A stretch of DNA of 64,000 nucleotides, taken from Escherichia phage vB_EcoM-Ro121c4YLVW. The position numbers were made by a program, and so were the translations under genes. The stretch lies in sequence record NC_052654.1; one strand, 5' to 3'. This document shows, one piece after another, positions 33,842 through 41,868 of the stretch (its first letter is position 1; each line of letters begins with the position of its first letter). The notes under the pieces were generated by a model, which had not been told where the DNA came from, ran no database searches, and saw nothing but the letters and a program-made list of their open reading frames with translations.

Positions 33842-33913
33842 TATCCCGTGCTGGATTCGAACCAGCATCACAATAAGCTGTGGAACTCTTATCCTGTAAG
33901 TCTAACGGGAAAC
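33842..33913 (-). pseudogene. degenerate tRNA-like element
   Basis: canonical T-arm GCTGG-TTCGAAT-CCAGC and pairing acceptor strands but too short; no canonical anticodon arm; no CCA. Confidence 0.3.
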
Positions 33914-34800: not shown

Positions 34801-34806
34801 AATGCT

Positions 34807-34884
34807 GGGACTCGGCAGGATTCGATACCTGCAATTCCAGAAGCCTATTGGCGACTGGGGGGTTTACCTTAACTCTACAAGTCC
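34807..34884 (-). pseudogene. degenerate tRNA-like element
   Basis: pairing acceptor strands and T-arm-like GCAGG-TATCGAAT-CCTGC (8 nt loop) but no anticodon arm; no CCA. Confidence 0.3.
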
Positions 34885-34891
34885 ATAATTC

Positions 34892-34977
34892 TGGCGATGA
34901 GTATAGGATTCGAACCTATATTGTTCTTTCGAACACGGATTAACAGTCCGCCGCTTAAACCATTCAGCCAACTCATC
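34892..34977 (-). tRNA. tRNA with Asn anticodon arm (GTT) and long type-II variable arm
   Basis: 86 nt; acceptor GATGAGT/ACTCATC; arm GCGGA-CTGTTAA-TCCGT; extra arm GTTC-GAAA-GAAC; G73; CCA encoded. Confidence 0.6.
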
Positions 34978-34983
34978 TTAATT

Positions 34984-35071
34984 TGGTGGTGAGTGATGGA
35001 GTCGAACCACCCGAATCGCAATGATAACAGATTTACAGTCTGCCCCGCTACCCCTACGGAATTAACTCACC
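34984..35071 (-). tRNA. tRNA-Tyr (anticodon GTA)
   Basis: 88 nt type II; acceptor GGTGAGT/ACTCACC; loop CTGTAAA; A73; CCA encoded. Confidence 0.8.
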
Positions 35072-35201
35072 TAAATACTAATATTTAAATTCTTTTTAAA
35101 ATAGCCAGTGTTCACACCACTAACTATGAGGTATCGGTAAAGTGGTTACCGCCACTTGCCGAAGATTTACTCTGCTAAAGTAAGCTACATTAAAAAGAAC
35201 T

Positions 35202-35292: not shown

Positions 35293-35383
35293 TGGCGGAA
35301 GGAGGGAGAGTCGAACTCCCAAGGCTCTTTCAAGCTCGGCGGTTTTCAAGACCGTTTTCGTCGCCACATCGATTTGCCCTTCC
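35293..35383 (-). tRNA. tRNA-Ser (anticodon TGA)
   Basis: 91 nt type II; loop CTTGAAA; T-arm GGGAG-TTCGACT-CTCCC; CCA encoded. Confidence 0.85.
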
Positions 35384-35391
35384 ATACTTAT

Positions 35392-35421
35392 AATCTAACA
35401 TAAAATAATGTTTGTTGTCAA
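35392..35421 (-). promoter_or_regulatory. sigma70-like promoter inside tRNA cluster
   Basis: minus-sense ATTGACAA then TTAGATT about 17 nt later, just upstream of tRNA-Ser(TGA). Confidence 0.45.
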
Positions 35422-40026: not shown

Positions 40027-40383
40027 ATGAGTGGTATTGAAAACAATATTTGTTACCAACCTCTTACCTGGATGGGTGAGGGTCATTATGCGCAACGTGT
40101 TATCGTCTGTGCTGCAAATAAGTATATTTTGAATAATGGTGAAGAGTTAATTATTCCTTGTGTTCGACATGCAAATCCTGTACTATATGCACAGTTAAAC
40201 GTGTTGAAAGAAGCAGGTGTAATCAACAAAACTTTGTGCACACCAGATAATCAAGGCTTTATCGATCAGTATTACAATTGGTGGAGTCGTGCGGATGCTT
40301 ACATCATCGCGGAAAATGCTGACCAGATCGACCATGAGCGTAATGGTCACGACCATGAATTATTTAGCGAGGGATTATACTAA
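40027..40383 (+). CDS. hypothetical early protein
   Basis: 118 aa ORF. Confidence 0.5.
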   Translation: MSGIENNICYQPLTWMGEGHYAQRVIVCAANKYILNNGEELIIPCVRHANPVLYAQLNVLKEAGVINKTLCTPDNQGFIDQYYNWWSRADAYIIAENADQIDHERNGHDHELFSEGLY

Positions 40384-40934
40384 TGTTTATTACAAGCGAT
40401 TTGCATTTTATGCATAAACGTATTCGAGAGTTTGCTCCTGAATATCGTCCGTGGGAAGATATGGACCACATGACAGAAGCCTTGATCGAAGCATGGAACA
40501 AATGTGCTACTACTCCTGGTGTTAAGATGTGGCATTTGGGCGACTTCTGTTTCGGAACTGAAGAAGATACCCGTAAAATTGCTTCTCGTCTCCAAGGAGA
40601 TATCACCTACTGTGTTGGGAACCATGACTACAGCAAACACCGAGAAGTGCTTGCAGAGTATGGTGAAGTGGTGTATTATGACGAAGTGAAATATCAGAAG
40701 CTGTTCTTCGTCTTAAGTCATTACCCTATGGCCTCCTGGAATAAACAAGGTCGTGGATCAATCATGCTACACGGGCATTCCCACGGATCTTTCCCTGATG
40801 AAGCTTATGGTAAAATGTTAGATGTGGGTTGGGATGCACACGGAAAAATCTTGCATTTTGATGAGATAATTTCTATGATGAGTAAACGAGATATCGTGAC
40901 TGTAGACCATCACAAAATAATCAAAGGAGAGTAA
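40383..40934 (+). CDS. calcineurin-like metallophosphoesterase (putative 2',3'-phosphatase of RNA repair cassette)
   Basis: motifs HLGDFCFG, VGNHD, LHGHSHG; adjacent to ligase and kinase. Confidence 0.7.
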   Translation: MFITSDLHFMHKRIREFAPEYRPWEDMDHMTEALIEAWNKCATTPGVKMWHLGDFCFGTEEDTRKIASRLQGDITYCVGNHDYSKHREVLAEYGEVVYYDEVKYQKLFFVLSHYPMASWNKQGRGSIMLHGHSHGSFPDEAYGKMLDVGWDAHGKILHFDEIISMMSKRDIVTVDHHKIIKGE

Positions 40935-40935
40935 T

Positions 40936-41868
40936 GTGACTAAATTTAATTGCGACGATTTGGTTGAAAAAGGTTTAGTTCATAAGAAAACATATAAAGA
41001 AGGAGAGTATTCTGGTCTATCTGTTCTTAAGTATAAGAACAAAGTTTTCTGGGATAACTTATGGAGCATTGATTCTCGTCTTCTAGAATGTCGCGGAATC
41101 GTTGTTGATGCTGATGACAATGTTGTTATTTGGCCTTTCACTAAGATTTTTAATCGTTTTGAGAATGGCACAGATCTACCATTGGATGAACTTGTAGATG
41201 TGGTTCGTAAAGTAAATGGTTTTATGGCCTCTGTAGGTGTATATAAAGGTCAACTTATTGTATCGACAACAGGAAGCCTTGAATCAGATTTTGCAAGTAT
41301 TGCAAAGAATCGTATTGTTTCAGAGTGTGATGACATAGAACATTTCATCAAATGGACAGAGAGTGCAAAAGCAACTTTCCTTTTTGAAATCTGTGATCCT
41401 TCTGATCCGCATATTGTCGAAGAAGAACCAGGTGCATACTTAATTGGTGCCAGAATTCAAAATCCTGATGGGACAAGTTTTATGTTACCTGAAGGTGCTC
41501 TTGATGGAATTGCTTCTGTCACCAAATTTAAGCGTCCTGAAGTTCATCCAATGGTTAAGTTTTCAGATGTTGTTGAAATGTCTAAACATTGTAAACACGA
41601 AGGGTTTGTAGTTCGTGAAACAAACTATCCGTTCAACTTACTTTTAAAAATTAAATCACCACACTATCTTACTAAGAAGTTTCTTATGCGCGGTGGAGAT
41701 AAAAAGTGGGATCTGATTTGGGATAATCCAAAAAATGCCAAACAAATGGTTGACGAAGAATATTACGCTTTGTTAGAATGGATTCGAAATAATTTTACGA
41801 AGACTCAATGGGCTGCTTTAAATCAGCAAGAGCGACGTGAAAAAATCGAAAACTTTTTTGGAGGATAA
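40936..41868 (+). CDS. ATP-dependent ligase, RNA-ligase-like
   Basis: motif I KVNGFM (no Arg), III FLFEICD, IV EGFVVR, V LKIKS; GTG start with SD. Confidence 0.6.
   Translation: MTKFNCDDLVEKGLVHKKTYKEGEYSGLSVLKYKNKVFWDNLWSIDSRLLECRGIVVDADDNVVIWPFTKIFNRFENGTDLPLDELVDVVRKVNGFMASVGVYKGQLIVSTTGSLESDFASIAKNRIVSECDDIEHFIKWTESAKATFLFEICDPSDPHIVEEEPGAYLIGARIQNPDGTSFMLPEGALDGIASVTKFKRPEVHPMVKFSDVVEMSKHCKHEGFVVRETNYPFNLLLKIKSPHYLTKKFLMRGGDKKWDLIWDNPKNAKQMVDEEYYALLEWIRNNFTKTQWAALNQQERREKIENFFGG

Follow-up and report, generated by a model that had tools for sequence, protein, structure and literature searches.

A phage tRNA-Asn gene with a class-II-like long variable arm that recurs across phage families and is kept by selection

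In bacteria, the transfer RNAs (tRNAs) with a long variable arm are those for leucine, serine and tyrosine (review PMC9976931), and the first reading of the DNA analyzed here had assumed the same. That reading, the original prediction, was made from the sequence of a stretch of 64,000 nucleotides (nt) of Escherichia phage vB_EcoM-Ro121c4YLVW (NC_052654.1), referred to below as the window. It described a tRNA gene in which the anticodon arm of tRNA-Asn is joined to a long variable arm, and proposed a chimeric or evolved tRNA that possibly evades or exploits a host enzyme targeting or modifying tRNA. The locus raises the question of which amino acid such a tRNA would carry and what the additional arm is for.

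ARAGORN placed an 86-nt tRNA-Asn(gtt) at 34892-34977 on the minus strand, with the anticodon at position 34. The Rfam tRNA model (RF00005) matched the gene with 62.1 bits (E=3.7e-12, gathering score 29), the variable arm being treated as a 12-nt insertion, and the score was the fifth best among the twelve tRNA-clan matches of the cluster. The two methods agreed on the predicted placement of the Asn anticodon, and neither gave another anticodon or a pseudogene score. The minimum-free-energy structure obtained with RNAfold was a five-arm cloverleaf with an acceptor stem of 7 base pairs (bp), a D stem of 3 bp, an anticodon stem of 5 bp, a variable stem of 4 bp (GAAA loop, 3-nt spacer) and a T stem of 5 bp, every stem being perfect or completed by G-U pairs. 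The hallmarks of an elongator tRNA could all be read in the gene: U8, G18 G19, U33, a purine at 37 (A37), the T-loop UUCGAAU and a 3' CCA. The minus-strand layout is

GAUGAGU / UG / GCUGAAUGGUUUAAGC / G / GCGGA-CUGUUAA-UCCGU / GUUC-GAAA-GAAC-AAU / AUAGG-UUCGAAU-CCUAU / ACUCAUC / G / CCA

and its parts are the following.

34892-34977, minus strand: whole tRNA-Asn(GUU) gene with class-II-like long variable arm and encoded CCA (ARAGORN, Rfam, RNAfold; annotated tRNA-Asn in phage ESCO13 and relatives).
34971-34977, minus strand: 5' strand of the acceptor stem, GAUGAGU, paired perfectly with 34896-34902 (ACUCAUC); G1-C72, A2-U71, U3-A70 (sequence, fold).
34953-34968, minus strand: D arm GCUG-AAUGGUUU-AAGC, with a 3-bp stem (G10-C25, C11-G24, U12-A23), G13/A22 unpaired and G18 G19 present (sequence, Rfam, RNAfold).
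34935-34951, minus strand: anticodon arm GCGGA-CUGUUAA-UCCGU, with the anticodon GUU at 34942-34944; the sequence of the site cut by the nuclease AriB, U36-A-A-U-C|C41, is kept (sequence, ARAGORN; cut site from PMC12409363).
34920-34934, minus strand: 15-nt variable arm with a 4-bp stem GUUC/GAAC, GAAA tetraloop and 3-nt 3' spacer AAU (sequence, RNAfold).
34903-34919, minus strand: T arm AUAGG-UUCGAAU-CCUAU (sequence, Rfam, RNAfold; T stem paired in 100% of the family cells described below).
34892-34895, minus strand: discriminator G73 (34895) and encoded CCA (34892-34894) (sequence).

The position, length, perfect 7-bp acceptor stem, G73 and CCA had thus been read correctly in the original prediction, as had the hairpin GTTC-GAAA-GAAC, to which the 3' AAU adds the last three of the 15 nt.

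The gene has the architecture of a class II tRNA, namely a variable region of more than 10 nt folded into a stem-loop, together with a D stem of 3 bp, which is typical of that class. It does not have class II identity. The anticodon is GUU and not one of Leu, Ser or Tyr, A73 is absent, and so is the serine signature G1-C72, G2-C71, A3-U70. In place of the 4-5 nt variable loop of type I architecture there is a 15-nt region with a 4-bp stem, and in place of the first pair typical of bacterial tRNA-Asn, U1-A72, there is G1-C72. The acceptor/T-stem geometry is the canonical 7/5, not the 8/4 or 9/3 geometry with extended D stem of the allo-tRNAs. No Rfam tRNA-Sec match was listed at the locus, which is weak as a negative because overlapping matches of the same clan are collapsed to the best one.

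The anticodon arm was compared with that of an E. coli tRNA-Asn sequence that is present with a 100% match, annotated as tRNA-Asn, in 5,425 of 5,426 E. coli genomes. The two arms agree at all 17 positions from 27 to 43 (17/17), and the match to the host given in the original prediction is correct. The two tRNAs also share G73 and the Q34/t6A37 loop context. However, the E. coli molecule is type I, with a 5-nt variable loop (AUGUC), a 4-bp D stem and U1-A72. Over its whole length the phage gene is 66% identical to E. coli tRNA-Asn, 68% identical to the tRNA-Tyr of the window and 72% identical to the tRNA-Ser(GCU) of the window.

The same build was found in other phages. When the Asn tRNA with its short flanks (98 nt) was searched with sensitive BLAST against 50,697 phage records, 756 records matched, and gapless alignments in the sampled rows were often continuous across the variable arm. 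Long-arm tRNA-Asn genes in isolates include the following (length including CCA).

T5-like Epseptimavirus (L002): 86 nt.
T4-like Winklervirus (L003): 84 nt.
T4-like Bragavirus (L004): 84 nt.
T4-like Mosugukvirus (L005): 85 nt.
phiKZ-like Pseudomonas phage PA1C (L006): 87 nt.
Sister genus Justusliebigvirus (L248, L250): 85 nt.

All of these genes have GUU, G73, an identical anticodon arm and a hairpin in the variable region. The IMG/VR collection was scanned with two patterns. The first, the Asn arm followed by 15-27 nt and then GTTC, gave at least 120 loci in which ARAGORN called at least 114 tRNA-Asn genes of 79-94 nt; long-arm Asn is present in at least 113 IMG/VR loci. With the isolates and bacterial examples, at least 103 distinct long-arm sequences were gathered. 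The second pattern, the 15-nt Asn arm alone, is blind to the length of the variable region and also gave at least 120 loci. Among 120 listed loci with the canonical Asn arm, 13 carry the long form (about 11%), rising to about 12 of 49 (24%) among the listed loci with at least five tRNAs. The second scan added 104 listed loci, nearly all short-arm, and shared 16 with the first, 13 of them long-arm; these 16 were assumed to be the first 16 loci of the first scan, 10 of them having been seen directly. Many of the short-arm matches are single tRNAs, eight of them identical to the E. coli gene, and may be host genes at prophage borders.

Cellular genomes gave a different picture. Long-arm Asn is absent from the 5,426 E. 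coli genomes searched. When the long-arm pattern was run on 185,579 bacterial and archaeal species genomes, 103 of the 113 genes called tRNA-Asn were ordinary 75-76 nt molecules, that is, chance matches to the pattern. Among the ten long genes, six belong to arrays of 7-36 tRNAs (Micromonospora/Verrucosispora, and contigs of metagenome-assembled genomes with phage-like clusters). The other four are the sole tRNA of the fetched locus, and one of them (L161) parses poorly and is likely a mis-call. On Verrucosispora and Micromonospora chromosomes (L136, L144, L172), 32-36 tRNA genes are packed into 8 kb and include a 90-nt long-arm tRNA-Asn; these arrays are cellular or integrated-element cases of the design.

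The extra arm could be maintained or could merely persist. Covariation was analyzed in 29 distinct members with a 15-nt variable region, whose anticodon arm, variable region and T arm align without gaps. Pairing across the three helices was kept in 95.1% of cells (T stem, 100%). At each of the three inner pairs of the variable stem, 7-18 of the 29 sequences have changed on both sides with pairing kept; one inner pair, for example, is AU in 10, GC in 10 and UA in 8. The covariation score was 0.555, compared with a shuffle mean of 0.142 (0 of 500 shuffles as high) and at most 0.10 for slid partners. Furthermore, the mean folding energy of the variable region was -3.45 kcal/mol vs. -0.58 for shuffles. 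A comparison with Justusliebigvirus, which shares the order Tyr-Asn-(tRNA-like)-Thr, illustrates the point: the extra stem is GUUC/GAAC in the window and GAAC/GUUC in Justusliebigvirus, two pairs being flipped. The extra hairpin of the long-arm Asn family is kept by selection. The description "chimeric or evolved" is borne out in that an Asn-type anticodon arm and acceptor end are combined with a class-II-type variable arm and 3-bp D stem, and further by the recurrence of this combination in many phage lineages and the compensatory changes in the extra stem.

The hairpin has a signature of its own among the long-arm tRNAs of the same phage loci.

Long-arm Asn: stem 3-4 bp; 3' spacer 3-4 nt (72/91); GNRA loops 71%, GAAA alone 54%.
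Tyr, same phage loci: stem 3-4 bp; 3' spacer 3 nt (27/39); GNRA loops 10%.
Ser, same phage loci: stem mostly 5-7 bp; 3' spacer 1 nt; GNRA loops 57%.
Leu, same phage loci: stem 2-5 bp; 3' spacer 2 nt; GNRA loops 52%.

Bacterial and phage tRNA-Tyr(GUA), a type II tRNA, shares with long-arm Asn a long arm with a similar stem and spacer, and its anticodon is one base apart. It differs from long-arm Asn in having A73 (49/49), G1-C72 and mostly non-GNRA variable loops.

In bacteria, asparagine identity is conferred by the anticodon triplet together with G73, and it can be moved to the body of a tRNA-Lys (PMC9976931). The window gene holds this full set for the asparaginyl-tRNA synthetase (AsnRS), G34-U35-U36 and G73. 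G73 was present in 96 of 96 parsed long-arm Asn genes, while A73 was present in all Tyr and Leu tRNAs of the same loci; G73 is an antideterminant for TyrRS and LeuRS (PMC9976931). U1-A72, the element read by the Asn amidotransferase in hosts without AsnRS (PMC9976931), was found in 64 of 93 other long-arm Asn genes, including that of PA1C, compared with 59 of 82 viral short-arm Asn and 22 of 27 sampled bacterial tRNA-Asn, and in none of the Ser, Tyr and Leu tRNAs from the same loci. The combination of G1-C72 with G2-C71 occurs in 90% of phage Ser vs. 15% of long-arm Asn, and A3-U70 in 93% vs. 11%, the window gene having A2-U71 and U3-A70. Moreover, C2-G71, a reported anti-SerRS element, is present in 44 of 96 long-arm Asn genes. 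Charging by SerRS or TyrRS was rejected on these acceptor-stem and discriminator statistics. Since the identity set is complete and the acceptor ends are Asn-like, unlike those of the Tyr, Leu and Ser tRNAs of the same loci, the gene product is likely charged with asparagine by the host AsnRS, as judged from its sequence. Asn codons make up 57.6 per 1000 in the long open reading frames of the window, above the approximately 40 per 1000 of E. coli. This heavy use is a reason to carry an Asn tRNA, though it does not explain the arm.

Cleavage of tRNA is a common anti-phage defence to which phage tRNAs are a counter-measure, and the known form of escape is point mutation around the cut site. The reading preferred here, held at somewhat less than even confidence, is that the gene encodes a working, AsnRS-charged tRNA-Asn whose selected extra arm may block host enzymes that read the tRNA body. 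The tRNA would be charged by the host AsnRS and would decode AAC and AAU as a working phage tRNA. Because the anticodon arm is identical to that of the host, neither decoding nor the modifications Q34 and t6A37 should differ from those of the host tRNA. The arm would reshape the tRNA core beside the 3' strand of the anticodon stem, such that host enzymes reading the body, the prime example being the PARIS nuclease AriB, would reject the molecule while AsnRS still accepts it. By blocking a nuclease that spans the anticodon stem to the elbow, the arm might provide a second route beside the point mutations of phage T5. Nuclease evasion as the role of the arm is a tentative proposal. The other half of the original suggestion, that a modifying enzyme is exploited, found no support.

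The AriB cut in E. coli tRNA-Asn(GUU) falls at 40|41 (PMC12409363), and in the window gene the variable arm starts 3 nt past this cut site. The Lys, Thr and Asn tRNAs of T5 jointly neutralise PARIS, with tRNA-Asn needed for full rescue (PMC12409363). Cleavage of T5 tRNA-Lys is not regained when its cut-site sequence is restored, which points to recognition by AriB of regions distant from the cut; in an AlphaFold 3 model, the second AriB subunit lies on the D loop (PMC12409363). The word "variable" is absent from the main text of that paper. Circumstantial support comes from 11 viral loci that hold a long-arm and a short-arm Asn together, with differing anticodon stems. It also comes from an RNA ligase of the T4 Rnl1 family (Pfam PF09511, E=5.9e-15) directly downstream of a calcineurin-like metallophosphoesterase at 40380-41865 on the plus strand, about 6 kb from the tRNA cluster; the two could be an RNA-repair pair.

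Two phages of the AriB study were examined for the form of their tRNA-Asn. T5 had been expected to carry the long-arm gene, and this expectation was rejected: its tRNA-Asn(GUU) is a 78-nt short-arm molecule. It occupies the same Cys-Asn-Asp position as the long-arm gene of Epseptimavirus, and the T5 variant was shown to aid escape from AriB (PMC12409363). The T5 anticodon stem carries changes at and near the cut site (39-41), whereas the long-arm form has the host stem and an altered body, and from their sequences and synteny the two genes could be two solutions to one problem. Phage Bas34 (SelmaRatti), the one published relative with a long arm, is reported to be sensitive to PARIS despite its own tRNA-Asn (PMC12409363). 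The Bas34 gene (L357:12599-12682) has a long arm (GUCGAAAGACAAC), U32 instead of C32 and a deletion of 3 nt in the 3' acceptor strand that leaves four acceptor pairs, and it was rejected by ARAGORN. The broken acceptor stem may explain why this tRNA failed to protect; because of it, Bas34 says nothing on intact long-arm genes.

Several points weigh against nuclease evasion. The AriB site U-A-A-U-C|C is kept in long-arm Asn, with U39 C40 C41 as in E. coli and unlike T5, so that protection would have to come from shape alone; a contribution to AriB escape was shown for the T5 variant, which is short-arm with a mutated cut site. Steric interference of the arm with AriB is deduced from the published AlphaFold 3 model rather than from a solved structure. 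The long-arm loci are not enriched for Lys(UUU)/Thr(UGU) (0.56/0.41 vs. 0.44/0.44 in short-arm loci), and the family is spread in environmental viromes, beyond hosts with known relevant nucleases. The conservation of the anticodon arm inside the IMG/VR family sample is by construction, as the first scan pattern fixes that arm. The Asp/Asn/Lys group of class II synthetases docks onto the tRNA from the side of the variable loop, which makes tolerance of the long arm by AsnRS an assumption. In the literature, an experiment on the expression, charging or cleavage of an intact long-arm tRNA-Asn was not found. A general anti-PARIS kit was considered as a separate idea and rejected: co-occurrence and neighbor counts are the same as for short-arm Asn loci, and the Lys-Tyr-Asn-Thr order of Justusliebigvirus is suggestive but not general.

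The possibility was considered that the arm has no purpose, being the relic of a type II tRNA that became an AsnRS-charged tRNA-Asn by anticodon remoulding and kept its hairpin for folding. The arm would be tolerated because AsnRS reads only the anticodon and position 73. This is a quite possible explanation, if one that is doubted on balance. By the published identity rules (PMC9976931), one change in Ser(GCU), to GUU with G73 already present, or two in Tyr(GUA), to GUU with A73 becoming G73, would yield the full Asn set. The window gene and the tRNA-Tyr 9 nt upstream of it have acceptor stems that differ at a single pair and variable regions of 15 nt with a 3-nt 3' spacer, and the spacer across the family resembles that of phage Tyr rather than those of Ser and Leu. 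The D arm of the phiKZ group, CCCGAG.GGUAGCAGGG, resembles that of E. coli tRNA-Tyr. Isotypes one change from type II anticodons, namely Cys, Thr(UGU), Trp, Gly and Pro, are also long-armed at low frequency, and covariation shows a need for the stem in folding but is no proof of an additional role. However, no consistent parent emerged. A single type II parent was sought through the D region (positions 8-26) against 1,242 tRNA D regions and rejected, since the nearest neighbors were scattered (Ser 12.6, Tyr 9.2, then many short-arm isotypes); it was likewise rejected through relatives at the same locus with the anticodon arm masked, which varied among Leu, Pro, Tyr and Ser, with a median identity of 66%. 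These sequences would fit several separate origins as well as strong divergence. The adjacent Tyr and Asn genes of Justusliebigvirus are unlike each other, GNRA loops are seven times as frequent in long-arm Asn as in phage tRNA-Tyr, and four loci (L049, L092, L105, L034) join a 4-bp D arm like that of E. coli tRNA-Asn (GUUCAUCCGGUAGAAC) to the long arm. Moreover, Asn is long-armed far more often (about 11% of listed loci) than most short-arm isotypes in phage clusters (0-10%), the exceptions being Trp (15% in one locus set) and Ile(UAU) (about 20%).

Apart from nuclease evasion and a purposeless relic, three further explanations were weighed. The tRNA might mainly serve as a decoy: made in abundance and resembling tRNA-Asn, it would bind and tie up a tRNA nuclease or modification enzyme of the host instead of taking part in translation. 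Overexpressed viral tRNAs were raised as possible competitive inhibitors in the AriB study (PMC12409363), and a host-identical anticodon arm with the AriB site would be good bait; but all features for translation are kept (perfect acceptor stem, G73, CCA, canonical T loop, G18 G19, U33, A37), the Asn-type acceptor ends across the family would be needless in a decoy and the phage uses Asn codons heavily, so that a decoy is quite improbable, the two roles not being exclusive. About as improbable is a missense tRNA, in which the long arm with G73 makes a substrate of SerRS, or a Tyr-like arm one of TyrRS, so that Ser or Tyr enters at Asn codons, in the manner of Candida tRNA-Ser(CAG) and of what has been proposed for the allo-tRNAs. 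Serine identity does reside mainly in the long arm, with the anticodon ignored and G73 favourable (PMC9976931), as was argued for the allo-tRNAs (PMC5389517), and the closest paralogue of the gene is the tRNA-Ser(GCU) of the window, with equal total length, a 15-nt variable region and a 4-bp stem. Against this stand the antideterminant effect of G73 on TyrRS and LeuRS, the scarcity of the Ser acceptor signature, the anti-SerRS pair in nearly half the members, an arm with a shorter stem and longer spacer than in phage Ser, the Asn hallmark U1-A72 in about 70% of the family and the complete AsnRS identity set. Finally, a pseudogene or software artefact, with the anticodon elsewhere or the gene decaying, has a negligible probability. 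Some relatives have decayed, Bas34 being an example; however, ARAGORN and Rfam agree on fold and anticodon, the stems are intact, the gene and its flanks are 98-100% identical in Phapecoctavirus isolates among the matches listed, and compensatory changes are seen both against Justusliebigvirus and across the family. A pseudogene or misplaced anticodon was refuted by ARAGORN, Rfam, covariation and RNAfold.

Two known systems invite comparison. The allo-tRNAs and tRNA-Sec-like molecules (PMC5389517) also have a long variable arm and a non-Ser anticodon, with G73 or U73, and some occur in phages. They have 8/4 or 9/3 geometry, long D stems and predicted Ser charging, whereas the window gene is 7/5 and lacks the Ser acceptor signature. 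Candida tRNA-Ser(CAG) and engineered anticodon-swapped tRNA-Ser likewise place the anticodon of another amino acid on a class II body. They stay Ser-charged because the synthetase for the new codon fails to capture them; in the window gene, by contrast, the new anticodon and G73 make up the full AsnRS identity set.

The window tRNA cluster is 100% identical to that of Escherichia phage ESCO13 (Phapecoctavirus, Stephanstirmvirinae), and the surrounding 3-kb cluster has 96-100% identity to other Phapecoctavirus-like isolates among the matches listed. On the minus strand the order is Met, Arg(UCU), Ser(UGA)-like, Ser(GCU), Tyr(GUA), Asn, tRNA-like, Thr(UGU), Gly, Gln, Pro, Ile, tRNA-like, Met. 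Two features upstream of the Asn gene are

34984-35071, minus strand: tRNA-Tyr(GUA) with a 15-nt variable region, 9 nt upstream of the Asn gene (Rfam tRNA, 39 bits; annotated in relatives).
35392-35421, minus strand: promoter-like site TTGACA-18-TAGATT with TG (consensus scan; site count no higher than in shuffled sequence).

The tRNA-Tyr was missed by ARAGORN and is without annotation in ESCO13; it has apparently three nt between the acceptor and D stems, and its D pairs are rich in G-U. The promoter-like site is the nearest upstream candidate for a transcript of Ser(UGA)-like, Ser(GCU), Tyr, Asn, tRNA-like and Thr, a weak assignment, and a terminator-like hairpin at 33641-33623 is a candidate only. 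Because promoter-like sites are no more frequent than in shuffled sequence, the boundaries of the transcription units are tentative. The tRNA-Ser(UGA)-like gene (35294-35383, minus strand) has an irregular D arm, was missed by ARAGORN, is not annotated in ESCO13 and has as its sole Rfam match a sub-threshold tRNA-Sec (35.7 bits).

Two tRNA-like elements lie in the cluster on the minus strand. One, at 34803-34885 between tRNA-Asn and tRNA-Thr, has no ARAGORN or Rfam call. It is homologous to the T5 "rna3, putative tRNA-like RNA", which directly follows the T5 tRNA-Asn (NC_005859 33877-33949), and to the sequence at the corresponding place in Justusliebigvirus (L250:793-871, L248:793-883). The 5' UGUAGAGUUAAG..AAAC is conserved, and compensatory changes occur in a T-arm-like hairpin, GCAGG-UAUCGAAU-CCUGC. 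The other, at 33845-33912 between tRNA-Ile and the last tRNA-Met, has an acceptor-like UCCCGU/ACGGGA and a perfect T arm GCUGG-UUCGAAU-CCAGC, and its D and anticodon arms are not recognisable. In Justusliebigvirus (L248/L250, 534-958) the order is Lys(UUU) - Tyr(GUA) - long-arm Asn(GUU) - tRNA-like - Thr(UGU), which brings three reported PARIS targets (Lys, Asn, Thr) side by side with Tyr, the target of a retron-associated nuclease. The window is without this Lys gene, and the matching 130-nt gap (35072-35201) holds no tRNA.

Long arms were also seen on other isotypes in phage clusters. GNRA-capped arms occur on Trp(CCA) (6), Thr(UGU) (5), Lys(UUU) (4), Cys (3), Glu (3) and Gly (3); example loci are L011, L018, L049 and L105 for Trp, L119, L121, L131 and L191 for Lys(UUU), L029, L053, L089 and L119 for Thr(UGU), and L011, L045 and L054 for Cys. 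Lys(UUU) and Thr(UGU) are the main AriB targets. A tRNA-Ile(UAU) of 91-96 nt with a long variable arm was found in L008, L020, L023, L024, L026, L027, L048, L093, L108, L109 and L191, with a conserved loop motif (CAGAUUA / CAGAUAA / CUAGAUUGG). Long-arm forms account for 12 of 63 and 7 of 29 Ile tRNAs in phage clusters, Ile(GAU) included, roughly a fifth, and long-arm Ile(UAU) seems to form a long-arm class of its own.

The locus itself is not new, as GenBank and RefSeq already label it tRNA-Asn in ESCO13 and relatives; the phage records give the plain name, and the annotations inspected carry no mark of the unusual build. A description of long-arm tRNA-Asn was not found in the full-text literature on phage tRNAs, tRNA identity and odd cloverleaves, in which subscription journals are mostly uncovered, so that an earlier mention is possible. 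What seems not to have been described before is the class-II-like build, together with the fact that it recurs in several phage families and is rare in cellular genomes, and a long-arm tRNA-Asn would be surprising to a tRNA specialist. As a conserved, phage-associated exception for Asn, the family means that the class I/class II split is not set by the amino acid, and by implication an additional helix on an Asn tRNA would be tolerated by AsnRS, EF-Tu and the ribosome. The family is also a natural scaffold for orthogonal or tagged Asn tRNAs. It is doubtful, though conceivable, that long-arm Asn constitutes a fourth long-arm tRNA class, all but missing from bacterial genomes and maintained by phages for immune evasion at the level of the tRNA body, with the rarer long-arm Lys(UUU), Thr(UGU), Trp and Ile(UAU) serving likewise. 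If true, phages would have a second way to escape tRNA cleavage, a change in the body of the tRNA with the anticodon arm kept as it is.

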